Notes: generated from the sequence alone by a model not told the origin. Numbered from the whole stretch's first letter, positions 1,521 to 20,416 are shown. The stretch is 63,814 bases of DNA, filler included, from 5 parts of 5 records of this genome joined end to end with filler, not necessarily neighbours in it; one strand, 5' to 3'. Numbers and translations: made by a program.

Positions 1521-1633
1521 TGGCAAATTCTACGGATAACAATAGTCACTATCAGGTCATATAGGTTAAGGCAAAATGAGATAATAATAATATACATAGT
1601 TCAATTTGTAATGCTCTACGATATCAACGGTTG

Positions 1634-3655: not shown

Positions 3656-3761
3656 TAAATCTACTTATTGAATATTGAAGGGGATTAAATATGACAAATA
3701 CAGTGAATACGTCATGATATCAAAAACCCACATATGACGAAGAGGTTACATTAAAAAGTTA

Positions 3762-4148
3762 CTATTTTGATTTCCTATCCTTCGCTGACTTGGCGAGGGC
3801 GGCCCTATTATCCTCCCTTTCCTTCTCGGCCTGAATCCTCGACAACTGGAACACTACCGGCATACCGGGCTGGGGGGACTTGGGTGTGTGCAGCATTTGA
3901 AGGAACGATCCAGCCCTCTCTAGTACGAACCTCTGCCTGTCAGGGTCAGACTCCTCGCGGTGTGCCCTCCAGGAGTCGACCGTCCGCTTCTTTAAAAACC
4001 TCTTTGCGTGTCTAGATTTGACGGTGATGTCAATAGAGCGGTAAATCATCCTCAACAGGCTGTAGGGGGTGTCGATGCTAAGCTGTTGCTGCTGCCCAGT
4101 GGGGGCGTGGGGAACAGGCGAAAAACGCGACATTGAAGTGCGGAACAT
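3762..4148 (-). CDS. Small basic protein, LYR-motif-like, possibly mitochondrial
   Basis: 128 aa; N-terminus MFRTSMSRF resembles a presequence; LRMIYRSI is LYR-like, followed by a helical segment. Confidence 0.5.
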   Translation of the reverse strand: MFRTSMSRFSPVPHAPTGQQQQLSIDTPYSLLRMIYRSIDITVKSRHAKRFLKKRTVDSWRAHREESDPDRQRFVLERAGSFLQMLHTPKSPQPGMPVVFQLSRIQAEKEREDNRAALAKSAKDRKSK

Positions 4149-4255
4149 ATTGCTAAATTACCTTTGATTATTAGGAGGGCAAAAGTAAACTACTCAACTA
4201 CACTTTATAATAAACTCCCTACTGAAACAATATTCAAATGAATGTGCAATCAAGA

Positions 4256-5233
4256 TTAGTGCAGGCATATAATTTCGTAATGGCCCGGTCGATAGAGGAC
4301 CGCTACATTGGGCCCCTCGGGGTTGGAGAAGAGGGGCTCCTTCATTACCCCATTCAGTTGGCCGGCCATCCCTGCCAGCACCGATCCATCAAATGAGTGT
4401 ACTTGGCACTTCATACTGCCCCTCTCTACCTCCTCCATGGCATTGTTGTCGAGGTATACAACCTCTACTCGCAGATTGAATAGGGCACACAGGGAAAGGA
4501 TGTGGAATTGGTCGGAGTCTACACCAACAGGTTCGACCTGTGATTCACAGAAGGCGTCGACAATACCCTGATCACTACCATCGGCAATGGCATTGAGGAT
4601 TTTGGTCTGGGCGGCAGGTGACAGGCTGTCCATGTCCGTACCAGCGATAAAGGGGGAGAAGGCGGCGGCATGTCCCCGCAGGAACCACGACTGGGCCATC
4701 CTCAAGAAGTAGATCAGGTAGTCGGCAGTCCCCTTGACAGATACGGCATCCATCACCACCTTGGCAACATTGGGTGTACCAACGGCCTTAAGTACCTCAT
4801 CGATGGTCTCCTCTGTCACTTCAACAAAGTCTTCCATATAGTCCCCAAACTGCTGCACCAGGGGTGCCTTGATGGCGGATACGTACTCACGGAGTGTGGT
4901 GCCTGCCTTACCTCCCGCTGCCGCATCAACAGCGATGCCCTCTAGTAGGTGGTAGAGGAAGCTACGCAAGAAGCAGTTTCCGTCGCCTGCTACCTCCCTG
5001 ATGCCCTTGTACGAGGGTTGCCCAAATACCCAGCGCAGCTTACTTTGGAACATGGGGTTGCAATCGTTGAAGTTGGTCAATTTGGTAGGGTCAGCTATAA
5101 CTGGCCCAACGACGTGAGATGAGCGAAGGGCACCTTCTGCAGCGATGGCGCTCCTCTGTGCATCAAGACACGCTAGAATATCAGGCTCAGTGGAGGGGGC
5201 CTCGATGGGTTGTTGGGTAGGCTCCTGGCTCAT
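4256..5233 (-). CDS. Otubain-type deubiquitinase (peptidase C65)
   Basis: Catalytic Cys motif IREVAGDGNCFLRSF and His motif LYRPGHYEI. Confidence 0.92.
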   Translation of the reverse strand: MSQEPTQQPIEAPSTEPDILACLDAQRSAIAAEGALRSSHVVGPVIADPTKLTNFNDCNPMFQSKLRWVFGQPSYKGIREVAGDGNCFLRSFLYHLLEGIAVDAAAGGKAGTTLREYVSAIKAPLVQQFGDYMEDFVEVTEETIDEVLKAVGTPNVAKVVMDAVSVKGTADYLIYFLRMAQSWFLRGHAAAFSPFIAGTDMDSLSPAAQTKILNAIADGSDQGIVDAFCESQVEPVGVDSDQFHILSLCALFNLRVEVVYLDNNAMEEVERGSMKCQVHSFDGSVLAGMAGQLNGVMKEPLFSNPEGPNVAVLYRPGHYEIICLH

Positions 5234-5464
5234 TTACAGGTGTATGTTAATGACAGTAGATCTAAAATGAAAGGGAATTTTCAGACATAAATAAATACCT
5301 TGGTATCAACATATATTACACATGAAGAGAGAGTGAAGAGGTGTAGGTTGTTATAAGGTTCGGCAGGTTAGTTGTTAACACTACGGCGCTACTTACGCCA
5401 CCTGAAGGACCCGTGAAGATGGCCCACGCGACCCCTCCTACTCTTTACGTACATGTTAACGCAA

Positions 5465-6487
5465 CTATAGCTTGGCGTTCTTGCTGTAGAGGACAGCCTC
5501 GCGGTACTTGTACTTCTCCGACACCTGCTGGGCTAAAGCAGCCAGCTCGGGGGAGGCACTGCATACCATGGCCTTGTCCATCATGTCGAAGTCACGCTCG
5601 GACTGCTCAGGGGTAAGGTCGCCCTTCTTGTAGATGGGGGCGACGATACCACCAGCCTCCCTAACAATGATGGTAGCGGCACAAGTATCCCAAGCCTGGA
5701 TTCCGGTCTCAAAGTAGAGGTCAAGACGACCGCATGCAACGGAGCACATATCCATGGCAGCGGAGCCGTACCCACGAATTCCGTGGCAGCGACGCTGAGC
5801 GAACTCCTTGGTGACGCCCATAATGGCGTCGATGGCGGCGTTGCTACGGTTGTAGCTGGTGTGGATGCAGACGAGGGCCTTGGTGACGTCCTTGCAAGCA
5901 GACACGCGGCAGGGGATTCCGTTGCAGAACGAGCCCTTTCCACGGATGCCCCAGAACACCTCCTTCATGATGGGAAGGTTGACAACACCCATGACGGGCT
6001 TCTTGTTGACGGAGAGGCCAATGCTCACACCACAGTCGAAGGAACCGTGGACGAAGCTGGTAGTGCCATCGATGGGATCGACCACCCAGGTGGGCTCGTC
6101 GAGGAGAGGCTCATCGGCCTTGGACTCCTCGCTGAGGACACGGAAAGGAACGGTACCGTCCTTATTAGCCTTGGAGCCGGTGCTACCTCCGACTACGGAG
6201 TCAGCACGCTGGACACCCTCACGGCGACGGCGCATGTTGAAAAGGTCGCACTCCTCTTTGAGGGTGGCAAGGACGATATCCTCACACTTCCTGTCATACT
6301 GGGTGACAAGGTCGACGGAGTAGGCCTTCTCATCAATTTCAAGGGGCATGGTGGCACGCTTGTCAATGCACTCGCGGATGAGAGAAGCGGCCTTGGCAGC
6401 GGCAATCTTGGCCGCCTCAAGGAGCACCTCGAGGTCATAGGGGGTAAGGCCCCACTCAGCGAGCTCCTCCATCAGGGCCACGGGCAT
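5465..6487 (-). CDS. Inositol monophosphatase
   Basis: Motifs DLVTQYD, SEE, WVVDPIDGTTSFVHG, GSAAMDMCSVACG and WDTCAATIIVREAGG. Confidence 0.95.
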   Translation of the reverse strand: MPVALMEELAEWGLTPYDLEVLLEAAKIAAAKAASLIRECIDKRATMPLEIDEKAYSVDLVTQYDRKCEDIVLATLKEECDLFNMRRRREGVQRADSVVGGSTGSKANKDGTVPFRVLSEESKADEPLLDEPTWVVDPIDGTTSFVHGSFDCGVSIGLSVNKKPVMGVVNLPIMKEVFWGIRGKGSFCNGIPCRVSACKDVTKALVCIHTSYNRSNAAIDAIMGVTKEFAQRRCHGIRGYGSAAMDMCSVACGRLDLYFETGIQAWDTCAATIIVREAGGIVAPIYKKGDLTPEQSERDFDMMDKAMVCSASPELAALAQQVSEKYKYREAVLYSKNAKL

Positions 6488-6610
6488 AGAGATGTGTAAA
6501 ATACTAAAATGGGATGGAAGGAACGTAATTCACATGATGTAAAAAATAATAATAAACATAGCGGCATAAGAGCACATCAATTTTAAAATGGTGCGAATTT
6601 ACTAACCTAC

Positions 6611-6883
6611 CTAGGGCTTGATCTGGCGGCAGTCCTCTCGTCGACACCACTCGTCCTCCTTCTTGGGCTCGGAGCACAGGGGGCAGTAGTACCAGTCGGT
6701 TTGCTTCATGTGTCCCTCCTTCCAGGCAGTGCCATAGTATTTCTTAGAAATCTCGAAGTGGCTTCTCTTCTTCTTGGGGGTTCCTCCCTTGTTTCCTAGT
6801 AAGATGGCGGTGGTGGCCAGCGCCCTATATTGTACCGAGGTGATAGCGCCCGAAGAAAAGGGCACCGCTACTCGACGAATCAT
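6611..6883 (-). CDS. Mitochondrial ribosomal protein bL32-like zinc-finger protein
   Basis: The true start is probably ATG 6883 (MIRRVAV..., just after a CCTAG acceptor). TPKKKRSH followed by CPLCSEPK-x5-C-x4-C parallels the bL32 pattern AVPKKK...CPxCGEPK...CxxC. Confidence 0.6.
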   Translation of the reverse strand: MIRRVAVPFSSGAITSVQYRALATTAILLGNKGGTPKKKRSHFEISKKYYGTAWKEGHMKQTDWYYCPLCSEPKKEDEWCRREDCRQIKP

Positions 6884-7017
6884 TGATTTAGACGTGCTAC
6901 TAGGAAAAAGGAGAGGGGGGTATGAACGTAGCACAGCAGTATCATATTGTCGTTAAGACATAACAGACAAGTGAAAGTGGGCGATAATAATAATAGTCAT
7001 GTAGTGATATCTAATAA

Positions 7018-7758
7018 TTAACGACGACCGCTGATCAGTCGGTTCCGCCTGTGGAGCTCCTTAGCGTATCCAGGCTGTAGCTTGGCCATTACAAGCTTGA
7101 GGACCGCAATAACTACGAACATGGCCACCACGTACCGCACCTTGTGGGTGATCACGCTCTGCCACCCCTTCTCGCCCTCCTCCTTGACTAGTAGGTAGGT
7201 GGTGGCGGTGGTGTGCTCCTCGCTGCCCACCACGGAGTTAAACACAGTGAACATTATTTGAGAGGGCACGGCCGCAATAGAGCACAGCTTGGCACCAACA
7301 CATGCCCCTGACCAGGTCCACATGAAACCGTTTGCGTGAATGGAATCGAACACCATAACATCCAGGACGATGGAGTGGCCGGCTATGGATAGGGGCTCCT
7401 TTGTGTACCTCTCCTCGTTATGCAGCACATGGGCGTTATCACCAGGGTTGGCACTAGTCTGGTCTCCAACGTTAATAGTGAAGGCGGTGTACTTGCCAAC
7501 AAAAGTTTCATCCGCATCGGACGATACGACGCTTCCCGACCATGTACCGTTCATCAAGTTCGCAGCCGAGAAGGGAGGTGGGGACATGCTCCAGAATGCC
7601 AGGATGGCAATGGCGCCGATGCCGACGATAACAATAATGGCGGTGGCTAGATTGGACACCTTGGGGGGAGGGGGTACCCTGGGGGCAGCAGTGGCCTTCT
7701 TACCCAGCAGGAATTGGCGGGCTGCATCGTTAGCCGACATGGTCTTCTTGGCCTGCAT
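7018..7758 (-). CDS. Hypothetical membrane protein (two predicted TM helices)
   Basis: Hydrophobic stretches LATAIIVIVGIGAIAILAFW and YVVAMFVVIAVLKLVM. Start moved to ATG 7758, after a pyrimidine tract plus AG. Confidence 0.65.
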   Translation of the reverse strand: MQAKKTMSANDAARQFLLGKKATAAPRVPPPPKVSNLATAIIVIVGIGAIAILAFWSMSPPPFSAANLMNGTWSGSVVSSDADETFVGKYTAFTINVGDQTSANPGDNAHVLHNEERYTKEPLSIAGHSIVLDVMVFDSIHANGFMWTWSGACVGAKLCSIAAVPSQIMFTVFNSVVGSEEHTTATTYLLVKEEGEKGWQSVITHKVRYVVAMFVVIAVLKLVMAKLQPGYAKELHRRNRLISGRR

Positions 7759-7884
7759 TGTGTAATACTGATAGGGAGGGAGGTAATATTTGATAGAAAG
7801 TTCATAATATTTGACAAACAAAGTCAGTATTGTAGAATCAATAATGTAGAAGTCTAGAAGTATACAATTATAATAATAAGTTGG

Positions 7885-8199
7885 CTAAGGACTGTCGAGT
7901 TTAGCCTTCTTCTTCATTTGCGATAGTTCAGCAGTTTCTTGAAGCCTCCTTTCTTCCCGTGCGGATGCCAGACGTGTCTTGTACTTCTCAAGTGCAGTAT
8001 TGTAAACGGAATTGTAGGAGGCTACCATAGCATCCTTATCCAGCAGGGATGAGTAGTCAGCAGGGGGGTATGGCTCGGTGCGGGGGGCGATGATGGGGAG
8101 GTCCCTATCAACCCTATCCTTCACCTCACTGTACGGTATCGATGGGGTCCATGCGAACCGCTCATCGATGGCCTGCCTCCTAGCCTCTAAGTCAGACAT
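7885..8199 (-). CDS. Hypothetical protein (104 aa)
   Basis: The ORF fills the gap between AT-rich spacers, on the array strand, with the acceptor CCCCCGTAG just upstream. Confidence 0.65.
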   Translation of the reverse strand: MSDLEARRQAIDERFAWTPSIPYSEVKDRVDRDLPIIAPRTEPYPPADYSSLLDKDAMVASYNSVYNTALEKYKTRLASAREERRLQETAELSQMKKKAKLDSP

Positions 8200-8305
8200 G
8201 TGTTAGCTACGGGGGATGGAAATATATAAAGATTTTTGCGTAAAATGAAATGTTTAAAAAGAGGGTCAATAATATTGTAAACTTCATAAATGTTAGTTCT
8301 ATTCA

Positions 8306-9148
8306 TTAGATACGTGTGCAGAGGGCGGTTGCTACCACCACGCACAGCAGGGCAATGGCCCCCACCCACATACAGACGGGCACCGAGAAGACACTCCTTT
8401 TAGACTGCCTCACGGGCCCGAATGCCGAGTGGTGGAAGTGCTCTCCGAAAGTGGGCTGGGAGGGACACCTGAGTTGGTTCGATATGTCCTCAGCAGTGCA
8501 GGACTCCAGGGCTAAGAGTGGATCCGCATCGTCTTTACCTAATAGGGCGATGGCATTGAAAGAGAAGAAATTACCCCCCGCCGCTGCCTTCCTCTGTACA
8601 TTTACCCTATCCCTCGGCACTGCATTGACAGCCTCCATAAAGGCCGATGAGAGTACTACGGGCCTGGGGGCGGCCACTGGGGCAGGGGCTTGAGCCAACT
8701 CCTCAAGGGTGGTACCGTTACGCCTAGCAGTGCGCTCCTTTTGCTGCACTGCCTTCTTGGCTTCGGCGGGAGTCATGCCCTCAGCAATGTAGGCAGCTAG
8801 TGCCTGCTGATGGGCTGCCTTTCGCTGCTGGATCTCGTCGTTGGACAGCTTAGGCTTCTCAACCCACTTGTGTACTCCCCGGTTGGGATTAGCAGTGTCC
8901 TCCATGTCACCCATAGCATGGGTTGGGGCCTTGGTGGCAGTGGTGGTAGTAGGCTGCTGTGCGGCCCGTTGGGGAGACTTACTCCTATCGTTGGCCACCT
9001 CCTCCTGTGGAGAGGAGGGGGATGGCTGATGGGGAGGTGGGCTCATACCGCCCCGTAGCATGCCACTGGGCATGGGAGACAGCTCCTTGGTGTCGGCCCT
9101 AGATGGTCCACGGGAGGTCCTTGCCGAGCTCGTTCTCTTTGGTGGCAT
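8306..9148 (-). CDS. Hypothetical tail-anchored protein
   Basis: Disordered N-terminus and a C-terminal hydrophobic helix VPVCMWVGAIALLCVVVATALC. Confidence 0.65.
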   Translation of the reverse strand: MPPKRTSSARTSRGPSRADTKELSPMPSGMLRGGMSPPPHQPSPSSPQEEVANDRSKSPQRAAQQPTTTTATKAPTHAMGDMEDTANPNRGVHKWVEKPKLSNDEIQQRKAAHQQALAAYIAEGMTPAEAKKAVQQKERTARRNGTTLEELAQAPAPVAAPRPVVLSSAFMEAVNAVPRDRVNVQRKAAAGGNFFSFNAIALLGKDDADPLLALESCTAEDISNQLRCPSQPTFGEHFHHSAFGPVRQSKRSVFSVPVCMWVGAIALLCVVVATALCTRI

Positions 9149-9358
9149 ATAATCTAAAAGGGGTAACTACACATTAACATATTCATAGTTACTAATAATT
9201 GATAACATTCAGAGCAAAGGTATGAGTAATATGAACTTTAATATCATAGGATATATGTATGTGTGATCCTCGGTGTAAGGATACGGTTCAAGTTGCACTA
9301 GTCATAATTGTGACTGGAAAATACGTTATTGGCAGGTGTTTGTATGTCGGCGTTTTTA

Positions 9359-10705
9359 TTAGACGCGTAGGACGATGTTGTTGTATGCCTCGGCGGTAAG
9401 GACGCTGTGCTCCTCCATAAAATGCCACACCTGGTCATGGAAGAACTGGGTAACAACGGCAGGGGCACCGCTACCCGCGATGTAGGCCAGCAGCCACACC
9501 CACCGTCCGAGACCACCGTAAACCAGCTCATGAAGGACATCAGCCTCCGATGGTCCCTTGGTCTCGGGACCCACGGTGGCGGTGAAGTCCCGCACGTAAG
9601 TGGCGACCATCTCCTTGAAGTAAGTACCGCGGGATGCGGGGGAGGTGTGAGAGATGAGGAACTGGCCAAGCTCCTGGGGGCCGGATCCAACACCGACCAC
9701 CTCCCAATCGAGGAGGACTAGGTCCCACTTATCCTCCCCGAGGCTTACTACCATCAGGTTAGCTGGGTGGAAGTCGCCGTGGACAATAGTGTACCCACAG
9801 GGGCCCTTGTGCATGTGGTCGGTGAACTGCTGGAAGCTAGCATTGCCCAACGCCAGCTCCATCATGTCGGCGAGCTGGGGGGCCACCTTGACGTCGTTCT
9901 TACCCTCGTTGGCGGCGAGGAACTTCTTCCATGCGTTGGCAGCAAGATCGGCATAGATCTGGTAGGACGCCTGGTTCTCGCCCTTCAGTACCCAGTCGGA
10001 GGCCCGTAGCCATGGACGATCACCGTTGACATCAGCCTCGGGGTCCTTGAGGTCGGAGAGACGGCTGGGGCTGATCCGCCAGAAGTTACCATGTAGGTTG
10101 GCAGCCTCGGATGCGGCACGGATAGAGACATCACGCTCGGTAACAGCGGGGAAGCCGGCGGTGATGGCGGCCAGATCCTTACCCCAGTTGTGTACGGAGG
10201 TGCCTCCGAAGAAGTATCCTGCCTGCACACCGTTGTACCTAGACTCGAAGGGGATGGGGGTCCCATCGGGGAGGGTAAGCTTGGTGGATGTGGCGAGGGT
10301 GAGATCACCCATAACCACTACCTTGTTGCCAACGGCATCATCGTTCTGAGCTCCGATGAAGAAGGGGAACATCGTGTCGTGGGGGGTATCGGGGCAGATG
10401 AGCTTCTGGAGGGCCATATCCCTAGCAAAGCGTGCCTCACGGTTAAGTCCCACCTGCTTGGTGGTGGCACGAGATGAATCGCTATCCCTGGTGGCCTTCA
10501 CTACTAGGGGGATGTCGCTGATGGGAGTACCGTCGACGGTAACCTTGGCCACACCCTTTAACATCATCATGCTCATACCGCCGGCGGTGGCGGTCACATC
10601 CTTCAACTCCATTGCAGCTACAACTACCTGGGCCCCGTCGGCAGCATGCTTGGTGATGAACTGCTTGACTAAGTTACCTGCCGTCTCGGTGATTTGATCA
10701 GCCAT
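9359..10705 (-). CDS. APH/choline kinase/ecdysteroid-kinase-like phosphotransferase
   Basis: VVK lysine, NREARF, Brenner motif TIVHGDFHPANLM and LLDWE. Start at MADQ (10705), after a long pyrimidine tract plus AG. Confidence 0.85.
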   Translation of the reverse strand: MADQITETAGNLVKQFITKHAADGAQVVVAAMELKDVTATAGGMSMMMLKGVAKVTVDGTPISDIPLVVKATRDSDSSRATTKQVGLNREARFARDMALQKLICPDTPHDTMFPFFIGAQNDDAVGNKVVVMGDLTLATSTKLTLPDGTPIPFESRYNGVQAGYFFGGTSVHNWGKDLAAITAGFPAVTERDVSIRAASEAANLHGNFWRISPSRLSDLKDPEADVNGDRPWLRASDWVLKGENQASYQIYADLAANAWKKFLAANEGKNDVKVAPQLADMMELALGNASFQQFTDHMHKGPCGYTIVHGDFHPANLMVVSLGEDKWDLVLLDWEVVGVGSGPQELGQFLISHTSPASRGTYFKEMVATYVRDFTATVGPETKGPSEADVLHELVYGGLGRWVWLLAYIAGSGAPAVVTQFFHDQVWHFMEEHSVLTAEAYNNIVLRV

Positions 10706-10835
10706 GGATATATAGGATCTTTTAAGGAAGGGGGAGGGAGAAGGGAACAATAGTGAAATGGGAACAATACATAATAATATTTCATTAAAATAATAGATAC
10801 GCAATGTTAGCTCCCAATGGTAGGTAGACCGCTAG

Positions 10836-13049
10836 CTAGCAGTCGATACCGGGCACGATACGAAGAGCCACTCCCTCCCCGTCATCATCCCCGACCGATG
10901 CGATACCACGCCCACCCTGAACAAAGGCAATGCCCTTGATGGTGTTGTCCTCTCCAGTGGCTGTGAACTTGGGGTGCAGGTTGGACCACTGGGCAACGAC
11001 TGTGAGACCAAGCTGCTCGTCAGATCCAGCTCTGGGAGGGGCGGATGCCAACAGGGTGACGCGGCGGTCGTGGATGTTGGTCAGCCCAACCACCAGTCGG
11101 AACGTAGAGTGGCTCACATTGCCAGACTCCTTGGGGCTGTACACCACAATTGCAGCCGACACAGAGGATACCCCGTAGGAGGGGTCGCCCTTCATACCGG
11201 CCATAGCTGGCACTTGGATGTGGGCAATGGGTATCTTGGGGTTGACGGTGGTCTGTGCAATCGATGTGATGGTCGACTCATGGGTACCAAGTCCGAAGTA
11301 ATGACGGTATGGGTTGCGGTCACCCTTCTTGAAGGAGGAAAGGCCTATGGCATCCACGTCGTACACACATACGTTACCACCTTCATCAGCTGTAACGACG
11401 AAGGATGGGATGTGGATCGAGCCACTATCCTTGGCTCTCTCAATGGGCAAGTGGGGCTGCACCATAGCCATCCCAACCACAACGGATCTCCCTCCGTCGA
11501 CCCTCTTCAGAACCATGGGGGAGTGCCCCCCGCCCAGATCAGCCCCCAGTGACTGCAGGGAGCATAGCTTGTCGGTACTGAACCAAGGATGCCTAGAGGC
11601 GCTAGTGGAGGATGGGAAGCGGTTCACTAACAGCTGGGATATACGAGGCTCCAGAAGGAAGTCCCCTGCGTAGAGTAGGAAGGGGTCGGATGCCACAATG
11701 CACGTACCACTGCCCACACTGAACTTCTGCACCTGGCCATAGTTGGCGGTGGGGGCATCGCGGTGAACGGCCGACACTGCGCCATCTGCCTTAGATACAA
11801 ATACCAGTATACTACCCATGGTGCGGTCGGAGATGGCCAGGGACGACTTAACGCCCTGTCGGAGGGACTCGCCACACTGGGGGGCTACGGGGTGCTCAAG
11901 GTGAGAGGCAAAAGAGCTAAAGAGGGATAGGCCATCGCATTTCCATACAGGCACGTTTCCGGGGCGGTGGTACTTCCACAACACCTGGGCATGCACCTGG
12001 GCAAACTTTGACTTGCCAGTACCCGTCTCACGGTACAGCCTCATAATAACGTAAGTGTCGGTGGTGGACTCGCCAACGACGACGTATTCATTAGAGTCGT
12101 CTAGAATGTCGGCGGCACCCTCAGCGGCCGATACGGCATGGGAGGCAGCGGTGGGGTTGATGAAGGAGGAGGCACCCAGGGGGGAGCTGTGCTGGAAGGC
12201 TGCGATGGACACATCTACAGGGGATACCCCGGTGTTGGGGTCGGCAGCGATATTGAGGGCGGTGCCGAGGACTTTTCCTAGGGGAAGGAAGTAGTCGACG
12301 GCCTGGGACAACTCGCTACCCTTCTCCATGAAGGCGGCCGTCTTGCCTTGTGGGTACACCCTTGCATCTTTCGATTGGCGACAGGATATGAGCAAATACT
12401 GCTGGCCGGGGCTGACAGCGAATGCACCAATGTGTACAGGGAATCGTGCCCCCTTTGAGGACCCCTTGTAGCTTTTCTTTAAGGGTGCCTTGGTGTTGAG
12501 GAGGGTAGAGATGGGTGGGCCCATCAGGTTGGAGGTGGCATTGGGGGCGGTGGTGGAGGCCTTGTCAACTAGTGCACGGAGCTCAATCTCCTCCTTGGAT
12601 ACTGCCGGTGAGGGGGCGGGGGCGGTGGCGGGAGTAGTAGGAGTGGACACAGTGGGGGTAGTATCAGCAGCTGCGTCATTAGATGATGACTTGCCCGCTG
12701 TTGGCTGCTTCTTGGCCTTCTTACCCTTCTTCATCTCCGCCAGCTGCTTATCAACTTCGGAGGAGGAGCTAAATATGCGAATGGCGTCGAATAATAGTTT
12801 GCCCACGATGATGGCGATGAGCCCCAATATACCATAGATTGCCCAGTCTAGGGTCTCCTCTCCATATGCCTCCTTTAGGCGGTCGACGAGGTCGGCAATG
12901 GTCTCGATGGGCTTCTGGTTCGGTATGTCGGATAGGGTGGCCTTGTCGTTGCGCAGCAGCACCCTCTCAACGAAGAGAGTGGCGGTATCACGCAGCAGGC
13001 GGCCGAGGTTGGTTGCGATGGTGAGGGCCTTGTCAGGAACGGCGTCCAT
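10836..13049 (-). CDS. Single-TM protein with a divergent beta-propeller (TBL2-like architecture)
   Basis: TM segment WAIYGILGLIAIIVGKLLF, a Lys-rich linker, then beta-rich WD-like blades (VVTADEGGNVCVYD; IKGIAFVQGGRGIASVGDD). Confidence 0.55.
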   Translation of the reverse strand: MDAVPDKALTIATNLGRLLRDTATLFVERVLLRNDKATLSDIPNQKPIETIADLVDRLKEAYGEETLDWAIYGILGLIAIIVGKLLFDAIRIFSSSSEVDKQLAEMKKGKKAKKQPTAGKSSSNDAAADTTPTVSTPTTPATAPAPSPAVSKEEIELRALVDKASTTAPNATSNLMGPPISTLLNTKAPLKKSYKGSSKGARFPVHIGAFAVSPGQQYLLISCRQSKDARVYPQGKTAAFMEKGSELSQAVDYFLPLGKVLGTALNIAADPNTGVSPVDVSIAAFQHSSPLGASSFINPTAASHAVSAAEGAADILDDSNEYVVVGESTTDTYVIMRLYRETGTGKSKFAQVHAQVLWKYHRPGNVPVWKCDGLSLFSSFASHLEHPVAPQCGESLRQGVKSSLAISDRTMGSILVFVSKADGAVSAVHRDAPTANYGQVQKFSVGSGTCIVASDPFLLYAGDFLLEPRISQLLVNRFPSSTSASRHPWFSTDKLCSLQSLGADLGGGHSPMVLKRVDGGRSVVVGMAMVQPHLPIERAKDSGSIHIPSFVVTADEGGNVCVYDVDAIGLSSFKKGDRNPYRHYFGLGTHESTITSIAQTTVNPKIPIAHIQVPAMAGMKGDPSYGVSSVSAAIVVYSPKESGNVSHSTFRLVVGLTNIHDRRVTLLASAPPRAGSDEQLGLTVVAQWSNLHPKFTATGEDNTIKGIAFVQGGRGIASVGDDDGEGVALRIVPGIDC

Positions 13050-13194
13050 GATATGGTGTTGTGAAGACTAAAATGGGGATACAAGACGTTATACCTGGTT
13101 AACAACATTATAACTTTCAACTCAAAATAAAATAAAATAACACTTAAAAACAAAAAATCTAAATTGTACTCTACACTTTAATCGAAACTGGACT

Positions 13195-13950
13195 TCATAC
13201 AACACGAGGAAAAGCGATTTGGAGAGTTCCCCCAAAACTACCTGTAACAAGGGAGGGGGTCGCAGAACCGTCGCCAACAGCAACGAAGCATCGAAGGACG
13301 TCCCCGTGGGTGGTAGTGCAGACAACCGACGGGGTGGTGTACACAACGGAGCGTTTCATAGTGGTGGCCATCAGCATGGCCTCATCCTCAGGGGTAGCCA
13401 CTACACATGCTGCCAACCGCCTTCCGATTTCTGAGGGCAGTGGTGCATCTTGGTTGTCAAACCGTTGGATGACATCATCCAGATCTACCTGACAGATGGA
13501 TCCCGAGTCGTACGATACAAGGCAGTGGGAGCCTGCGATGACTACATCAGATATCCAGGGGGTGGACTCATCGGATGGTGGGTTGGGACATGCCATCTCG
13601 CACATGAGGTGGTGTTTACTAGGCACGGTCACATCCCACACAAATCCGGGCCCGTTCCAGCAACCAACCAATAGGAGGAGTCGGGTGGGGGTTGAGTACA
13701 TTGCAACCTGCCGCAGGGGATTACCAAATGCAACGTCCGACACAGTTGAAATCACCGCCGCTTGCCGAACAGAGATGAGTGAAACTGCTTGACGTTGGGC
13801 TGCTGCAATAATAGTGTCACATGCCCGGTGGATGGCCTGCATTGTCTTGACTGCTCCTTGTAGTGCGACCACATACTTTTGGCCGAATGATCCCCAATTC
13901 GGAATCACGGCCACGTTGCGGATGGTGTAGAAGGAGCCGTCTACACACCA
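13195..13950 (-). CDS. Beta-propeller-like protein, 5'-truncated by the contig edge
   Basis: WD-like blades (LLVGCWNGPGFVWD; LVTGSFGGTLQI); the frame appears to continue to the contig end. Confidence 0.5.
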   Translation of the reverse strand, partial: WCVDGSFYTIRNVAVIPNWGSFGQKYVVALQGAVKTMQAIHRACDTIIAAAQRQAVSLISVRQAAVISTVSDVAFGNPLRQVAMYSTPTRLLLLVGCWNGPGFVWDVTVPSKHHLMCEMACPNPPSDESTPWISDVVIAGSHCLVSYDSGSICQVDLDDVIQRFDNQDAPLPSEIGRRLAACVVATPEDEAMLMATTMKRSVVYTTPSVVCTTTHGDVLRCFVAVGDGSATPSLVTGSFGGTLQIAFPRVV

Positions 13951-14050: not shown

Positions 14051-14090
14051 TGTAGCCCTATTTTTTTTAGCCCGTGTTATACGCTTTTCA

Positions 14091-14231
14091 TTAAAGAGCA
14101 TGAACATTTCTTTTTCTCCTTACCGATATTGATAATTCGGTAAACGCACGTTTAAAATAATCCCCTTTTTTCTTTTTGATCGCTTTGCTCTTTACCACCA
14201 CAGGAACGAGGATGGTAATGTGCAAAAAGCG
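14091..14231. repeat. Left sub-terminal inverted-repeat blocks with hairpins
   Basis: 14091-14112 is the reverse complement of 20299-20320 (21/22); 14153-14176 is the reverse complement of 20263-20286 (24/24). Local hairpins at 14120-14143 (TTACCGA/TCGGTAA) and 14181-14231. Confidence 0.85.
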
Positions 14232-14237
14232 ACAGGT

Positions 14238-15812
14238 TCATTTTCTCATCCTCTTTCTCGTGAGTTTAACTCTGATTCCAGTTAGCTTTTCCAAATCTTC
14301 ATTGTTGATCCCCAAAGTTGGATTTAAGATATTAAGATCATTTGTAGAAAGTACCTCCTCAATATTTTTTTTGTTCTCGAATATTTCTGTAAATGTTTCA
14401 AATTGAGTTTGACTTATTTTAGAATAAGGAATTGGCAATCCTTTAAACTCACTAGGAACTAATTCTAAAACACCTCCACCATAATATCTTCCGTCAATTT
14501 CAGCGAGCAATAGAGTAAGGGTGTTATAAAAAGAATAGATAAAGCTGTTTATGTCGTAACCATTTCTCATACCAACCTTATATGCAGAATCAGTTACTAA
14601 AGCATTCGAATCATTCTTCAATAACTTTGGATATAAATGACTTCTTTTAAAGAAGAACGCTTCTGGTCTTTCAGCAATATTTGGAATGACGTACCAATTA
14701 TTTCTGATTTTACATTTGTACCTATTTGGAATACCTTCTTTTACACCAAGTTCAAGATATTCGTTTAGTTTTTTGGAAATTTTATCGGTATCGTTAAGCT
14801 GTAACAACTTTGTAGGTCGATTATTGTTTTTTAGGATTTCAATGTCTACCTCTGAAAAAACCACACTACCGTTAACGAACAAGCCTTTTTGAATTATTGG
14901 TTTAGTATATTTTGATAGATTAAATTGTTTTTCAGTTTCATTATCTATAATGAAAAACTTATTGGCGGCAGTAACAATTCCAGGCTTAGAGTCTGAGTAA
15001 TAATTAACATTTTTGAGCTTACTTTTTAAGTTATCTATAAAAGTTAATTCATCTGAAGTTAAGAAGTGATGTGTCCATTTTACTTTTGAAGAAACGAGTA
15101 AGTCATTATTTCTTAAAACAAAATTATTCTCTTCTAGTGTTTTCTTAGAATCTATATTAGCAAAAAACTCGCCTTTATTTTCAGATTTTCGGTACGCGAA
15201 TAGGACAATTGTATCTTGCCCTTTACATTCAAACATAAGATCATTGAAAGTGAAAATTTCTATTCTTTCAAATTGATTTTTTAAATATTCTCGAACTTCC
15301 TCAGCAAACTTTACTTGTAATAATTCAGAGGGAAGTACGAATGCTAGAACACCATTATCTATTAATAATGTATTCGCCTTAATAAGAAATGTTGTCCAAA
15401 TATTTTTAACCGAAGCATCCGTTAACCCCGCATCATTATGAATTTCTCGAATTAGTCCAATTTGTTTTTTGGTAAGTCTGTTTTTCTTGACATACGGTGG
15501 GTTTCCGACAATAGCCGAGTACTTTTTAGTGTCTGAAAATTCTAAAAAGTCGATCCCGATAAATGAAGAGTTCTTTTTATTCCATTTTTTAGAAGCTTTA
15601 TCTAACTCATCTTGATTAATATCCAGTGCGGTTAAGTTAATGGAAACGGAATCGTCTTTCTTCAGTTCTTCTATGAATGATCCATCACCTACACTTGGTT
15701 CTAAAATGGACATACGGGTTCTTCCTTCAAAGTGAGAGAGTACTCTCTTTGAAATGAATTCTGCCAAATATGATGGCGTGTAATAAGAACCAGTATTTTT
15801 TTTATTTGTCAT
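14238..15812 (-). CDS. N6-adenine DNA methyltransferase, gamma class (Eco57I/TaqI-like) with a C-terminal TRD
   Basis: Motif X TGSYYTP, motif I ILEPSVGDGSF, motif IV GNPPY and LAFVLP, followed by a C-terminal target-recognition region. No PD-(D/E)xK domain is apparent. Confidence 0.93.
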   Translation of the reverse strand: MTNKKNTGSYYTPSYLAEFISKRVLSHFEGRTRMSILEPSVGDGSFIEELKKDDSVSINLTALDINQDELDKASKKWNKKNSSFIGIDFLEFSDTKKYSAIVGNPPYVKKNRLTKKQIGLIREIHNDAGLTDASVKNIWTTFLIKANTLLIDNGVLAFVLPSELLQVKFAEEVREYLKNQFERIEIFTFNDLMFECKGQDTIVLFAYRKSENKGEFFANIDSKKTLEENNFVLRNNDLLVSSKVKWTHHFLTSDELTFIDNLKSKLKNVNYYSDSKPGIVTAANKFFIIDNETEKQFNLSKYTKPIIQKGLFVNGSVVFSEVDIEILKNNNRPTKLLQLNDTDKISKKLNEYLELGVKEGIPNRYKCKIRNNWYVIPNIAERPEAFFFKRSHLYPKLLKNDSNALVTDSAYKVGMRNGYDINSFIYSFYNTLTLLLAEIDGRYYGGGVLELVPSEFKGLPIPYSKISQTQFETFTEIFENKKNIEEVLSTNDLNILNPTLGINNEDLEKLTGIRVKLTRKRMRK

Positions 15813-16393
15813 TAATGTTTAAATAGCTTTTGGATATAGTCATCATAGGTATTGTACAACAAAATTAACCTGTCTTTCAAATTATTATCATCTGGCATTT
15901 TAACAACCAGTTCGCGAAGTTCTTTAATTAATTTATGAAGTTGTTCAATATTCCAAATTATTTCATGTTGCGGTTTGTATAATTTCATTGCGTTATACAT
16001 CCAGTCACCTAATTCCGTTTTTGGTTTTATTCTACCAGAGTTCAATCGCTCAAATTGGTTGACATACTCTTCCTCGCAAGGGTCAATAAATCCTTTGTTA
16101 CCATAGTTATGAGTTTTCTCATTACCTGTTGGCCATTTTGCGCGTTTAGCATTATTGCAAGATCTACAAGAATAAACGAGGTTCGAATAATCAGTGTCGG
16201 TAATACTAACTAAATGTTTTCTTGGTACAAAATGATCAATCTCAAACCAAATGAACCTCAAATTATCAATATCATTACAATAACCACATCTGTTCTTGAA
16301 ATCTAATTTTAAATTGTCTCTATGTTCACTATGAGAACTAACCGTAATCGTAATGTCTCTTCGTTTGGGAGTATGTTCTCTAAAAATGCTCAT
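15812..16393 (-). CDS. HNH endonuclease (Zn-binding)
   Basis: CGYC...FEIDHFVP...YSNLVYSCRSCNNAK; its stop overlaps the MTase start (TAATG). Confidence 0.92.
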   Translation of the reverse strand: MSIFREHTPKRRDITITVSSHSEHRDNLKLDFKNRCGYCNDIDNLRFIWFEIDHFVPRKHLVSITDTDYSNLVYSCRSCNNAKRAKWPTGNEKTHNYGNKGFIDPCEEEYVNQFERLNSGRIKPKTELGDWMYNAMKLYKPQHEIIWNIEQLHKLIKELRELVVKMPDDNNLKDRLILLYNTYDDYIQKLFKH

Positions 16394-16396
16394 TAT

Positions 16397-17047
16397 TTAT
16401 TTCTTGTTTCCTTTTTTTAGCTCATCTAAAATTTCTTTTGTTTGCAACACAAATTCATTCAACTGAGATATTGACTCTGGTTTAATTAAGTTTGCTCTGA
16501 TTTCTTTTCCTTCGGGCTCTAATTCGTCCATTAAAATGAAAAGCTTTGTCAATTGTTCTTCCTCTTCAGGCTCAAGATTGGATTCGTTCTTTTTCTTGAC
16601 TAATTCTTCAATTCGTTTTTCTGTAGTTGAAATTTTTCTGTAATAGCCTTCTATATCACTTCTAATTTTAGCTTTGAGAATTTCTAAGGCTTCTTCACTT
16701 TCTCCGTCCAAATCACCTTTACCATTAATTATATGAACATCATCCATATGATTTATGGCTTGGGGCTCATATGATGTAAGCATGGTTATTGGGAAATGCG
16801 GTCTTATGTTTTGAATCGCTGCAACGATTTTGTTGCCATTAAAATTAACATCTCCTTCTTCATCTAATAAGTAGTCTGTAACAATCCCATCGGGATTACT
16901 TTCAAATGCTTTTTGCAAAATACTTTCGACCGTAGATTCTGAACTTACCTTAATTCTCGTTATATCAAAATCATTTTTAAATGTCTGATAAAACGTATTC
17001 AGCCAAGCATCGCTTTCGTCAATATATACAATTCGGTATTTCATCAT
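16397..17047 (-). CDS. Response-regulator receiver domain with a C-terminal helical/coiled-coil extension
   Basis: IVYIDES acidic pocket, phosphoacceptor in GIVTDYLL, ITMLTS and a conserved Lys (INGK). No HTH output domain. The start overlaps the kinase stop. Confidence 0.85.
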   Translation of the reverse strand: MMKYRIVYIDESDAWLNTFYQTFKNDFDITRIKVSSESTVESILQKAFESNPDGIVTDYLLDEEGDVNFNGNKIVAAIQNIRPHFPITMLTSYEPQAINHMDDVHIINGKGDLDGESEEALEILKAKIRSDIEGYYRKISTTEKRIEELVKKKNESNLEPEEEEQLTKLFILMDELEPEGKEIRANLIKPESISQLNEFVLQTKEILDELKKGNKK

Positions 17048-19485
17048 CTCGTTTTGAAAGTTATTTTATGTTTTAAACCATTTTCAATTCCAATAATGGA
17101 GATTGTAGAGTTGTTGTATTCTTCAATGATTGATTTTACAATATATAGCCCTAATCCAGTTCCAATAACATTTCCTGTTTTATCTTTTTTTGAAGATTCG
17201 AGTAGTTTGAATATTTCTTCAGGATTATCATGGTATTGTTTGTCCAGTCCTTTACCGTTATCTGAAAACGTTATTTCTATATTTTCACCAACTGTTATCC
17301 AAGATATTACAATTAATTTTGGATGGGAATTTGATCCTTTAAGATAATTCATGGAGTTGGATAACAGATTATTAAAAATTGAATCCATGTCTACCTCAAA
17401 TGCTCTTATTGTGTTCGAACGATCATTAGTCCCGTTTAATTCAATTTGAATATTCCTTTGTTCTAGAGCCTTTTTCCAAGTTGACTTAAAACCTTCGAAG
17501 TATTCACCAAAGTTTAAGTTGCTTCGTTCTCTTTTATCTCGTTTTAATGTATTCAATGAGTATTCTAGCCAATGTTTAAGTTTTGTATCTTCTTCTTGAA
17601 TTAACTTAATCATATAAAAAGGATTGTCGTCCTTATCTAATTTTGTTAAGCTTTTTTCATCTAAATGATTTTTTAGTTCTCTAAGCAAGAATGATGTTCT
17701 TGGAATGAGCCTTGATCTTAAACTTTTTACTTCATGAGCAAAAGAAGAGATAATAAGTCCTACACTCGCTAAGTTTCTGAGAAGTCGAATTTCGTCTTCT
17801 TTTTCTTCAAGTTCACGGGTAAGAATTTGAACTCCTTCTGCTAAGGTTTCTTCCGTTCTTGACGAAGTGTTATCATTTCTAGAGTCGTTGCTCTCCGAAG
17901 TGTTACCATTTTCCGATTCACTTCCGCTATTGTTTTCTCTCTCCTCTTTTTCCTTTTTTATTCTGTCAGCCTCTTCTTGTGCCTTTCGCTTTGCTTCTGC
18001 CTCCTTATTTTTCTTTTTATGGAGCTCAGAAAGGTGAAACATAATTGTATTTCTATCCTTTTCAAAAAAGGAAATGGTCTCTTTTAGAATATTCACAAAC
18101 AAAGTGAATACATCATTTTCAATAATTCCTTCACGCCCTGACTTATCTTGAAAACTCAAATTATGAATTCTAGAGATATTTATCGTTCCAGCAATTTGGT
18201 TTGGTCTTATTCGATAACCACCTAATCTTTGACCTGCGCCACCAGGACTCTGAGATTGACGCTCTCCTAGTTTTAACCAATCTTGGCCGTTTTCTCCATA
18301 TGGTCGGATTCTAAAATCATCTCTAAAGATTTTCACACCTCCAAATCGTTTAAGCCAAGACTTTCTATTGGCACTTTTAAAAGAGTTATATGGATATTTT
18401 TTCAAGTCTCCATCATTGCTGTCGTCAGATATTGTGTTTTTTAGGAAATAAAAGCTAAATCCAAATTCCCCTACTTTAGAAATTAATTCTGCTTCTATAT
18501 CATCTGATAAAATTGCACTTAACGGCTTCGTGATCGTTATTGTTTTTGCTTTAAAATCCTCAAGGCGATATGGGTATTTTTTCATATCATCATAGTCGAA
18601 AACTTCTGAATATCTGTTTTCAAGAGCGTCAACATCAAGTTCATTTCTCGTTATGTTAACTTCGAGTGTGCCGCTTTCATTTCCGCTGTATTTCGCTTCT
18701 ATTTTATAATCATAATCATCGTAATATGCTGTTTTGACTTTCCCATATTTATCATAATCTTCTGTTGAAAAGAGGTAGATTTCAAAATCAGATTGTTCTT
18801 TGGGAGGCAGAAGCATTTCAAGGTTGCCGAAAAGATTTGCCAATTGTTCATCCGTCCAATTATCGTTTAATTCGGATATTTCAATAATAGTTCCTGTTTC
18901 AAATGAATCATCTTCAATTATCTGTTGTAATTGATCTTGACTTCCAAATTTGGTGATTAATTCATTTTTAAGATTCAGATTGGGTCTTGGTTCAAGATCA
19001 GCGTTAACCTGAGAAACAGTTGTTCCAGACTGGTCAAAGTCTTGCCAATTTACTTTCCAGTATAGCCCTTCATTTTCCTTGGATGATAATGTCTGTAATT
19101 CTGTGACAAGCCCAAGACGGTTTAACGCAAATCGGCCAATCCCTTTTGCTCCAGTTTTAACTCTACCATTTTCAGAAAGATGTTCGTATAGTTTGTCATC
19201 CGTCCCGATGGTCATCCATTGATTCGATATGATGTGGTTTGTCATGCCATGACCATTATCAATCATGTAAATCCTACTTTTCTTGGAGTTGACTAATTTA
19301 GTTTTTTCACCATCTTCATTTTCAGTTATATCATAAACCAAATCAAAAATCAGGATACACTTTTTGCTATCTGCATCATAAGTGTTTTTAACTAACTCAA
19401 CTATGGCACCTTCCTCGTTAGAAAAATTTTCTAAGCCAATTAATTTAGCAGTTCTGGCAGATACTTTAAATGGTATTTTTGACAT
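17044..19485 (-). CDS. Cytoplasmic histidine kinase fused to an N-terminal GHKL (MutL/MORC-like HATPase_c_3) ATPase
   Basis: N-terminal GHKL motifs ELVKNTYDA, DNGHGM, GAKGIGRFA and TGTII; S5-like GGVKIFRDDFRIRPYG; a coiled coil; H-box SSFAHEVKS, N-box IFNNLLSNS, G1 FSDNGKG and G2 GTGLGLYIVK. Start taken as MSKIPF (19485), 4 nt after the HTH stop. Confidence 0.92.
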   Translation of the reverse strand: MSKIPFKVSARTAKLIGLENFSNEEGAIVELVKNTYDADSKKCILIFDLVYDITENEDGEKTKLVNSKKSRIYMIDNGHGMTNHIISNQWMTIGTDDKLYEHLSENGRVKTGAKGIGRFALNRLGLVTELQTLSSKENEGLYWKVNWQDFDQSGTTVSQVNADLEPRPNLNLKNELITKFGSQDQLQQIIEDDSFETGTIIEISELNDNWTDEQLANLFGNLEMLLPPKEQSDFEIYLFSTEDYDKYGKVKTAYYDDYDYKIEAKYSGNESGTLEVNITRNELDVDALENRYSEVFDYDDMKKYPYRLEDFKAKTITITKPLSAILSDDIEAELISKVGEFGFSFYFLKNTISDDSNDGDLKKYPYNSFKSANRKSWLKRFGGVKIFRDDFRIRPYGENGQDWLKLGERQSQSPGGAGQRLGGYRIRPNQIAGTINISRIHNLSFQDKSGREGIIENDVFTLFVNILKETISFFEKDRNTIMFHLSELHKKKNKEAEAKRKAQEEADRIKKEKEERENNSGSESENGNTSESNDSRNDNTSSRTEETLAEGVQILTRELEEKEDEIRLLRNLASVGLIISSFAHEVKSLRSRLIPRTSFLLRELKNHLDEKSLTKLDKDDNPFYMIKLIQEEDTKLKHWLEYSLNTLKRDKRERSNLNFGEYFEGFKSTWKKALEQRNIQIELNGTNDRSNTIRAFEVDMDSIFNNLLSNSMNYLKGSNSHPKLIVISWITVGENIEITFSDNGKGLDKQYHDNPEEIFKLLESSKKDKTGNVIGTGLGLYIVKSIIEEYNNSTISIIGIENGLKHKITFKTR

Positions 19486-19489
19486 TTCA

Positions 19490-19699
19490 TTAACCTTTGG
19501 TGGATACAAAAAGTTCTCTAATATCTACTTCCAAGAATTGAGCGAGTTGATAGAACACCTCAACGGATGGTTGTACATCATTTGTACACCAACGAGAAAC
19601 AGTTGATTCCGTTTTGTTTAAGCGCTTAGCAATTTCTTTTGAAGATATACTTTTCTCAGCTAAAACGGCTTTTATCCTATTGTAATTTATTTTCTCCAT
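19490..19699 (-). CDS. XRE/Cro-family HTH regulator (69 aa), controller-protein-like position
   Basis: MEKINYNRIKAVLAEKSISSKEIAKRLNKTESTVSRWCTNDVQPSVEVFYQLAQFLEVDIRELF is the typical Bacteroidota small XRE HTH. Confidence 0.9.
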   Translation of the reverse strand: MEKINYNRIKAVLAEKSISSKEIAKRLNKTESTVSRWCTNDVQPSVEVFYQLAQFLEVDIRELFVSTKG

Positions 19700-19871
19700 T
19701 ATGCAATGTAATTGCTGTTTGGTGTAAATATACAGACTCTTAAATACTTCAAAATCGGCAGGAATTATAGTTTCATGCAAATTACCACGCATAAAAACGA
19801 AATAAAATTTGTTTGAATCGAAATTAATTGTAATTTGGTCTAAAGTTATTAACACCAAAAGCTAATTATCT
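19700..19871. promoter_or_regulatory. Divergent promoter region with Bacteroidota-type -33/-7 like elements
   Basis: Plus strand: TTTG (19808-19811)-N19-TAATTTGG (19831), one mismatch to TAnnTTTG. Minus strand: TTTG-N17-TATATTTA. Palindrome GCAAT-N3-ATTGC (19703-19715) next to the HTH start is a candidate operator. Confidence 0.4.
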
Positions 19872-20180
19872 ATGTCCAACAAAGAATTAATCATCAAATT
19901 GATCCAACAAGACTTAAAACACTGCCAATTAGTCGTTGGATTAGACCAACTCGGTTTAGAAGCATCAGACAAACATTGCCTTGAATTGTTAGACATTGTA
20001 GCCGACCTAATGCAAGTTCCCGCAGGGAACTTGGAATTCGATTGGGGTAGAGTGTACATCACTTATATGTCAGAATGCACGGGCGTAGAAGTTGAGTCGA
20101 CATCCGAATCTCTTCGACCATACGCAGAATATTGTTACAACGATTTATGCGAGATTTTAAGTTCAGCGAACGGACGTTAG
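19872..20180 (+). CDS. Small acidic hypothetical protein divergent from the XRE gene
   Basis: 102-aa helical ORF (MSNKELIIKLIQQDLKHCQLVVGL...) with an AT-rich upstream region; no recognised domain. Confidence 0.75.
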   Translation: MSNKELIIKLIQQDLKHCQLVVGLDQLGLEASDKHCLELLDIVADLMQVPAGNLEFDWGRVYITYMSECTGVEVESTSESLRPYAEYCYNDLCEILSSANGR

Positions 20181-20193
20181 TTCTACCGCGATC

Positions 20194-20374
20194 TGCGTGG
20201 GAAAAATAAGTGCATTACAAACTGACCGTAGGGAATTTGTAAATGCTCTTATGTGCGTGGGCAAAAGAAAAAAGGGGATTATTTTACCTTCAATCAATAA
20301 GAAATGTTTATGCTCTTTAACCTTGTTTGGGTGCTATCTACTCTGGGCTTCTCTCGGACATGGCGCACCCAAAC
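20194..20374. repeat. Right sub-terminal structured region: hairpins plus inverted-repeat blocks
   Basis: Hairpin 20206-20252 (ATAAG-GCATT-ACAAA / TTTGT-AATGC-CTTAT) flanked by TGCGTGGG direct repeats (20194, 20254); IR blocks 20263-20286 and 20299-20320; perfect 10-bp stem GTTTGGGTGC/GCACCCAAAC (20325-20374). Confidence 0.85.
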
Positions 20375-20416
20375 TGTTGTTGCGTATAACATCTGGCTAA
20401 AGATACCCCTTTATAT

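Follow-up and report, generated by a model that had tools for sequence, protein, structure and literature searches.

Integron cassettes usually carry a single promoterless open reading frame (ORF), and the classical attC site, about 57-141 nt long, is an imperfect palindrome that can fold into a hairpin. In published surveys, the largest known cassette is about 2 kb (Cury et al. 2016, PMC4889954), integrons are rarely reported from Bacteroidota (PMC8618304), and IntegronFinder 2.0 gives for that phylum In0 elements and one complete integron, that of Salinibacter ruber (PMC9024848). The defence cassettes of Vibrio integrons are described as small and streamlined systems that fit the size constraint (Darracq et al. 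2024, 10.1101/2024.07.02.601686). We have analysed a contig of 6366 nt at positions 14051-20416 of a 63,814-nt window (the whole stretch of DNA that was analysed), and consider it likely to be one complete gene cassette of about 6.3 kb from an integron-like array in a low-GC (guanine plus cytosine) member of the Bacteroidota, and not part of a canonical integron.

The closest described systems are the sedentary chromosomal integrons and the clusters of attC sites lacking integron-integrases (CALIN). With these, as IntegronFinder defines them (Cury et al. 2016, PMC4889954; Neron et al. 2022, PMC9024848), the likeness lies in arrays whose units are set apart by imperfect palindromes, some 45-135 nt in length, that run AAC...GTT. 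The start of a unit complements its own far-end box, the signature of a G/TT crossover; the sites are near-identical within one genome, and in the genome of a relative a recombinase with the integron integrase as its best match abuts an array junction. The differences lie in the core, which here is mostly YAYAAC/GTTRTR and not RYYYAAC/GTTRRRY; in the relative's recombinase, which has 280 amino acids, lacks the IntI-specific segment and has the array 3' of its gene; and in the cassettes, which reach 5.8-6.3 kb with five or six genes, divergent units among them, the cassette in our window adding inverted arms. The defence cassettes of Vibrio sedentary integrons are alike in that a chromosomal array stores defence-type genes in cassette form, whereas here the cargo amounts to an entire operon of five genes, about 5.5 kb long, the host belongs to the Bacteroidota and the sites differ.

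The first evidence comes from the two ends of the contig. Read on the minus strand, it starts ...TCTTTAG-CCAGAT-GTTATACGC and ends GCGTATAAC-ACGGG-CTAAAAA.... A first-pass annotation, made from the sequence alone, had proposed that the cores at the two ends are complementary and that the half-sites pair, and this is borne out: complementarity is exact over 10 bp (14075-14084 against 20382-20391), and the energy of the duplex between the terminal 34-35-mers is -25.3 kcal/mol, a value that none of 500 shuffles reaches, the shuffles giving -9.3 +/- 2.7 kcal/mol. The paired halves contain one bulged T and one mismatch. In the whole window there are just two copies of the 9-mer GTTATACGC, and both belong to this contig, one lying 25 nt and the other 26 nt from its ends; the expected count is 0.25, and two or more matches anywhere were found in 3 of 100 shuffles. 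At the left, the inner half of a palindromic site (14051-14075), which is common to other units of the source genome and pairs with 20391-20416, adjoins the core box GTTATACGC (14076-14084), on the operon strand the AAC box GCGTATAAC at the 3' end of the cassette. At the right, the core box GCGTATAAC (20382-20390), on the operon strand the G/TT box at which the cassette starts, adjoins the other inner half (20391-20416), likewise common to other units of that genome. The bases at the start of the cassette complement its own far-end box at 9 of 9 positions, or at 10 with the flanking base.

We propose that the cassette is bounded by halves of imperfect palindromes of about 80 nt, with the order box-AAC ... 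GTT-box, in which the 6 nt beside AAC or GTT would be specific to the cassette. By analogy with integrons, a tyrosine recombinase of the source genome may cut at G/TT in the folded or paired site, and the cassette would then leave as a circle and re-enter. Such a cut, with exit and re-entry of a circle, would account for first bases that are the reverse complement of the cassette's own far-end box.

The window joins five unrelated contigs with spacers of N or TTAATTAATTAA between them. The GC content of the contig under study is 33%, against 53-61% in the neighbouring contigs; it is therefore a stray bacterial contig, from a different organism, inside another organism's assembly. Four public runs of a single study (X1-X4), labelled as four different organisms, contain this same 6366-nt unitig, so the bacterium is a companion or a laboratory contaminant common to the runs of that study. 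It is a low-GC member of the Bacteroidota, probably of the Flavobacteriaceae, that accompanied the high-GC organism being sequenced. A run from a second study has the 6366-nt sequence in part, and runs X5 and X6 cover it only as low-depth fragments, with further loose ends and a 14550-18897 joint among them; no RNA run was among the listed runs that carry the contig. A megablast search with the whole contig against plasmid and phage collections gave no match. Elsewhere in the window, the contig at 20517-44102 has a run of C at its start and a run of G at its end that resemble read artefacts.

The contigs of four runs were aligned to 14051-20416 and examined for depth, overlaps and branch points. 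The 6366-nt unitig has a depth of 19.1 in X1 and 16.6 in X2, and at either end it has exactly 30 nt in common with other unitigs, the k-1 overlap of this k=31 graph; the contig ends accordingly sit 30 nt from branch points at 14081 and 20386, both of which lie inside the core boxes. The first-pass annotation had the assembly breaking about 25 nt outside each core because repeats break assemblies. The repeats do break it, the contig ending at the sites because adjoining cassettes have near-identical ones, and the 25-nt margin is an artefact of k=31. A 2003-nt contig begins with the left 30-mer (14051-14080), which recurs in a 68-nt unitig (depth 30 and 33); a 2677-nt contig ends with the right 30-mer (20387-20416), which recurs in a 36-nt unitig (depth 39 and 35). 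Near-copies with 1-5 mismatches stand at the ends of contigs of 2003, 2841 and 6198 nt. The half-sites, which the earlier annotation had advised seeking on other contigs of the source, are thus common to at least five contigs of the source runs, ours included, although array contiguity is not directly visible in these runs. The alignments of other units of the source genome to our contig stop at 14080 and 20386: the flanks are common and the arms inside them are not.

These contigs might owe their ends to a dispersed intergenic palindromic repeat, of the repetitive extragenic palindrome (REP), bacterial interspersed mosaic element (BIME) or miniature inverted-repeat transposable element (MITE) kind, in which case the 6.3 kb would be ordinary chromosome between two copies and not mobile. 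Any multi-copy palindrome yields unitigs with inverted halves at their ends, and a recombinase of the source genome was not seen, the contig alone having been examined. Copy number speaks against this explanation, which we regard as unlikely. All long contigs have a depth of 13-21, and the site-bearing pieces are only about twice as deep as single-copy sequence; the sites are therefore a small family, and several single-copy units of one genome have near-identical sites. The 2003-nt contig, like the 6366-nt contig, has site halves at both ends, and with at least two such units, their sites within 2-6 kb of each other, the sites are clustered. The bases before TAAC vary from unit to unit (...GTAC-ATAAC, ...GTCGT-TAAC and, in the 6366-nt contig, GCGT-ATAAC), yet although the boxes vary in the 6 nt beside AAC or GTT, the box of our contig agrees with the one at its own opposite end.

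In the metagenome run X6, one contig with a depth of 2.7 leads from 20374 through about 55 nt into 14051-14110, a junction that implies a site of about 83 nt and has the form expected of a circle or a tandem; at that depth and in one contig, it could instead come from an adjoining cassette with a similar start. An artefact of assembly or library preparation, in which a fold-back chimera created the inverted ends, would suit a contig that is short, foreign to the main assembly and inverted at its ends. We consider this extremely improbable: substitutions and indels of 12-55 nt set the two ends apart, the identical unitig recurs in four runs and partly in a run of another study, and one end recurs in an independent metagenome contig.

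Further evidence that the contig is a cassette comes from homologous operons in other genomes. A genome scan found 25 loci in Bacteroidota (L001-L025) in which the protein encoded by the longest gene of the contig, of 821 amino acids, is 60-78% identical; they span Flavobacteriaceae, Chitinophagaceae, Saprospiraceae, Bacteroidales and others. A site finder based on RNAfold with TAAC/GTTA ends was too noisy and alignment-based scoring of the arms too strict, as the stems use G-T pairs, and a box-chain test was adopted, in which units with exact matches between start and end boxes must tile with site-sized gaps. In the genome of Sungkyunkwania multivorans (G005; locus L010), the operon is a single unit, at 846-6617, that starts with GTTGTACAC and ends with GTGTACAAC; it belongs to an array of seven units, with a box match of 9/9 in six and 8/9 in one. 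In an Edaphocola metagenome-assembled genome (MAG; locus L021), the operon is again a single unit, at 7581-13737 (GTTATGCCT ... AGGCATAAC), and two more units follow it in a chain of three. The operon units are 5.8-6.2 kb each, and the units of both loci are separated by clean AAC...GTT palindromes of 46-133 nt. A palindromic repeat scattered through the chromosome does not predict that the same operon should be a rule-obeying array unit in two other genomes.

Over 14 units with six variable bases each, a unit's start box agrees with its own end box at 83 of 84 variable nt, whereas the two boxes that belong to one site agree at only 26 of 66. The first figure is partly circular, since the units were found by demanding exact box matches; because the match was selected by the search, the independent evidence is that the units tile into chains whose gaps are of site size and fall at real palindromes. 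For L010 and for locus L036, 20 shuffles each gave chains of at most two, against four observed, whereas the chain of three in L021 was reached by 4 of 20 shuffles, and support for the L021 array rests on its boxes standing at clean palindromes. Five further single units on small contigs of G005 follow the box rule. In copies of a unit without an ORF in that genome, the boxes covary (GTTACGTGC/GCACGTAAC in one case and GTTAGGTGC/GCACCTAAC in another). G005 has at least four copies of this GC-rich unit, which is about 385 nt long (L037, L038, L039 and L010 8168-8552), one of them a hybrid with an 8/9 match. The G005 array is broken up into small contigs with site repeats at their ends, just like the contig in our window. 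Most boxes of L010, L036 and L021 have the pattern YAYAAC, so that only the AAC/GTT part of the classical core is kept. In L010 and L021 the spacer is about 4 nt longer on the GTT side, and the canonical pattern of extrahelical bases is not matched. The earlier proposal of a mobile integron-like cassette from a Bacteroidota array thus gains from the half-sites on at least five contigs and from homologous operons that are units under the G/TT rule, and loses in that the system is not a canonical integron.

A complete site was found in a metagenome contig, L026, the one contig matched in a scan with the 24-nt block that is repeated near both ends of our contig. Positions 1802-2314 of L026 are 89% identical to 19881-20390 of the window, which hold the 102-amino-acid gene at the right of our contig (ORF102) and the arm that follows it, and the similarity stops exactly after the core GCGTATAAC (20382-20390). 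A complete hairpin of 78 nt then runs from GCGTATAAC to GTTATATGC (2306-2386; -19.6 kcal/mol, z -6.1), with a 4-nt bulge on one side. On the other side of ORF102 the context is different, with a 480-amino-acid ORF and another XRE gene. This ORF102 block in another context, with its breakpoint exactly at the core, is again at odds with a dispersed palindromic repeat. Further along L026, GTTATATGC at 2378 is followed about 500 nt on by its exact complement GCATATAAC at 2877 (9/9), after which there is only a short 8-bp palindrome before the contig end; a second unit, GTTATATGC-GCATATAAC, is suggestive only. The comparison with L026 also bears on orientation. The central part of the site does not travel with the ORF102 side, and the spacer on the GTT side is longer in L010 and L021 in the operon sense, as it is in the window and L026 only if these are read on the minus strand; these two hints make the operon (minus) strand the likely canonical direction.

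The first-pass annotation had the inverted repeat of the ends as it is at the cores, and in fact it runs much further inward. The left arm (14091-14176) consists of blocks at 14091-14115 and 14153-14176, with a small local hairpin between them, and these are inverted copies of blocks in the right arm (20263-20374), which lie at 20296-20320 and 20263-20286. The outer pair is 25 nt long and 92% identical, and the inner pair 24 nt and 100%. The blocks are colinear with indels between them, so that the two ends differ by substitutions and by the indels of 12-55 nt mentioned above. A 50-nt hairpin completes the right arm (20325-20374) and is present at that end only; it has a stem of 10 bp and is kept in L026 (about 2247-2297) with one stem mismatch and no compensatory change. 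The two terminal genes of the contig, the methylase on one strand and ORF102 on the other, are each followed by the same module and the same AAC box, and the cassette of our window is therefore symmetric. An inversion-type event between two like-ended cassettes could have made it so.

Arms of this kind invite comparison with a non-autonomous, transposon-like element mobilised in trans, with imperfect terminal inverted repeats (TIRs) of 110-170 nt (core, 22-nt block and 24-nt block) and a palindromic target. Three colinear inverted blocks at both ends, one of them of 24 nt at 100%, would fit such an element, as would the same end module and ORF102 with a different cargo in L026. Domain searches of its proteins found no transposase in the contig, however, and there is no target-site duplication, the flanks being inverted and not direct. 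Other units of the source genome have the flanks without the arms, L026 has an arm on one side only, and the homologous cassettes have none. We judge a transposon-like origin to be quite improbable. Scans of the contig for terminators found no terminator-like site; Rfam and tRNA scans of the contig and L026 gave nothing relevant, the sole match (JPX_2, E 0.82) being a chance one, and Rfam holds no attC-type family. IMG/VR contained no copy of the 22-nt block.

A candidate for the recombinase of such arrays comes from G005, the single genome covered by this part of the analysis, which is a relative and not the source. A tyrosine recombinase of 280 amino acids is encoded at the start of contig C5 and abuts an array junction, the 3' end of its gene lying about 50 nt from a junction made of ...AAC and a short hairpin-containing sequence; the same junction sequence is found on contig C8. 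The sequence that follows the ...AAC box, about 35 nt with a small hairpin, occurs twice in G005, directly 3' of the recombinase gene (L034 1-160) and at a place without a nearby recombinase (L035, about 600-660), and this duplicated junction sequence is a candidate attI-like site. The best family match of the protein is the integron integrase TIGR02249, in two stretches that score 197 bits, below the cut-off of 265. Its alignment with IntI4 (2a3v) covers 10-180 and 246-319, the latter stretch with the C-terminal tail, and skips 181-245; it has 28 residues where IntI4 has 65, and it therefore lacks the segment that defines IntI. IntI is defined by an extra domain (10.1101/2022.02.06.479319).

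It is in this light that a canonical integron, with an IntI that carries the IntI-specific domain and with sites that are divergent attC, has to be weighed. The sites are imperfect palindromes of an attC-like kind, with a 78-nt hairpin in L026, halves that pair in our contig and an implied full length of about 83 nt; their ends run AAC...GTT, the cassette rule is followed, and integrons have been reported from Bacteroidota (PMC8618304, PMC9024848). However, the core does not conform to the consensus, the recombinase of the L010 genome, the only one seen beside such an array, falls below the family cut-off and skips the IntI4 segment, and the cassettes are far above the classical size. We hold this explanation to be very improbable.

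Several points weigh against an integron-like cassette, besides the partial circularity of the box matches, the behaviour of the L021 chain in shuffles and the thin coverage of the X6 junction. The core of our contig, GTATAAC/GTTATAC, departs from RYYYAAC/GTTRRRY and has a purine at the third position, and the cassette is about three times the classical maximum of about 2 kb, with divergent transcription units; both the unusual size (6.3 kb) and the core that departs from GTTRRRY had been pointed out in the first-pass annotation, and both are real. The long inward arms are not a feature of attC and are absent from the operon cassettes of L010 and L021, and a long inverted duplication with arms (blocks of 22-25 nt) could itself produce the complementarity of the cores without circularisation. 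No recombinase gene like that of G005 is present in the 6366-nt contig or in the other loci examined. The end sequences of our contig occur at none of the 25 homologous loci, a result that had been named in advance as one that would count against a cassette; yet the operon is an array unit at two of them. The other 23 operons show no array by the chain test, their chains of two or three being at the level of shuffles. That these 23 of 25 stand in ordinary contexts, with terminator-like hairpins or unrelated repeats, is what a dispersed palindromic repeat would lead one to expect. A self-similarity scan of the 25 loci found mostly terminator hairpins and unrelated repeats, and the repeats of L001 are a different family: downstream of the operon in this Dokdonia MAG (6900-8140) there are a CAACTT microsatellite, short tandem repeats containing TAGTC and a repeated 53-nt hairpin, unrelated to the sites of our contig. 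A chain running through the operon at L004 was rejected, its AAC box lying in the loop of a terminator hairpin.

The proposed cassette carries six genes in all, the number given in the first-pass annotation; they are five operon genes on the minus strand and the 102-amino-acid gene on the plus strand, a 66-amino-acid minus-strand ORF that overlaps the latter being probably spurious. The cassette was also thought to have promoters of its own. The Bacteroidota-type -7 promoter motif is TAnnTTTG, and no copy of this consensus was found in the region between ORF102 and the helix-turn-helix (HTH) gene from which it diverges, so this part of the proposal received no support.

The operon genes are described here from left to right. 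A gene at 14238-15812 encodes an Eco57I-type N6-adenine DNA methyltransferase of 524 amino acids (PF22837 6e-37, PF07669 6e-16; PADLOC MTase_II 3.9e-141), and that at 15812-16393 a PtuB-like HNH nuclease of 193 amino acids (PF01844 2.1e-8; PtuB 1.4e-14). The 216-amino-acid product of the gene at 16397-17047 is receiver-like, on a weak match to PF00072 (E 0.0034, below the cut-off). The gene at 17044-19509 encodes the protein of 821 amino acids, which has a MORC-type GHKL ATPase at its N-terminus (HATPase_c_3 at 33-164; the N-terminus is of the BbrUII family) and a histidine-kinase module at its C-terminus (HATPase_c at 707-805, with histidine-kinase models over 551-818). The last gene of the operon strand (19490-19699) encodes an XRE-family HTH regulator of 69 amino acids, with HTH_3 (3.1e-11) at residues 62-116 of the ORF as listed, which extends to 19858; residue 54 is an internal Met, the match to homologues is confined to residues 54-117, and the true start is probably the ATG at 19699. 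PADLOC had no model matching the 821- or the 216-amino-acid protein, and IMG/VR held no relative of the former. An identification as MADS was rejected, the matches to mad1 and mad2 being weak only.

A methyltransferase and a nuclease are encoded together, as in type II restriction-modification (RM) or defence operons, and from its gene content the operon looks like an RM-type defence system with a built-in two-component-like switch. Iyer, Abhiman and Aravind are said to have linked GHKL/MORC-type ATPases to RM systems in 2008. The operon resembles these systems and the BbrUII/HgiDII family (NCBIfam NF050001) in its N-terminal HATPase_c_3 module beside a methylase and a nuclease, and differs from them in that its ATPase carries a fused histidine-kinase module, a receiver-like protein and a PtuB-like HNH nuclease coming next. 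The core of HTH, GHKL, receiver and HNH genes is kept across the homologous loci and the methylase is exchangeable. The 216-amino-acid protein is kept in 24 of 25, the exception being L002, where the locus ends inside the GHKL gene. The methylase is 65-78% identical in seven complete genes, about 39% in two and about 20% in two, with no match in the rest; an eighth (L009) is cut after 25 amino acids. This pattern suggests modular exchange of the specificity gene.

ORF102 (19872-20180, plus strand) is 90% identical at the amino acid level to its counterpart in L026 and had no family match in Pfam, NCBIfam or Atlas. Among 401 Flavobacteriaceae genomes, 5 have homologues with 35-44% identity, and one of the five has three of them; in these five the downstream module was not recognisable. 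In both the window and L026 (1790-2101) the gene lies back to back with an XRE HTH gene, and the same conserved non-coding module, some 200 nt long, comes after it.

A bolder and less probable reading is a sister system of integrons in Bacteroidota that has not been described. It would have an IntI-related recombinase without the IntI-specific domain, hairpin sites of the form YAYAAC/GTTRTR and no limit to small cassettes, and it would carry complete anti-phage operons, about 6 kb long, from family to family (Flavobacteriaceae and Chitinophagaceae), each as a single cassette; the cassette in our window, symmetric and double-ended, might be excised, inverted or inserted either way. The literature that we searched contains no account of Bacteroidota arrays with an IntI-like recombinase that lacks the domain, within a partial coverage that leaves room for an earlier description. 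In three genomes, which belong to two families of Bacteroidota, one five-gene, defence-type operon appears to form a single cassette about 6 kb long, bounded by sites that the standard criteria for integrons would miss. If the mechanism is confirmed, the range of cassette capture would widen in host phylum, in site grammar, in type of recombinase and in size of cargo, and the arrays would give entire defence systems a means of spreading through marine and soil Bacteroidota.

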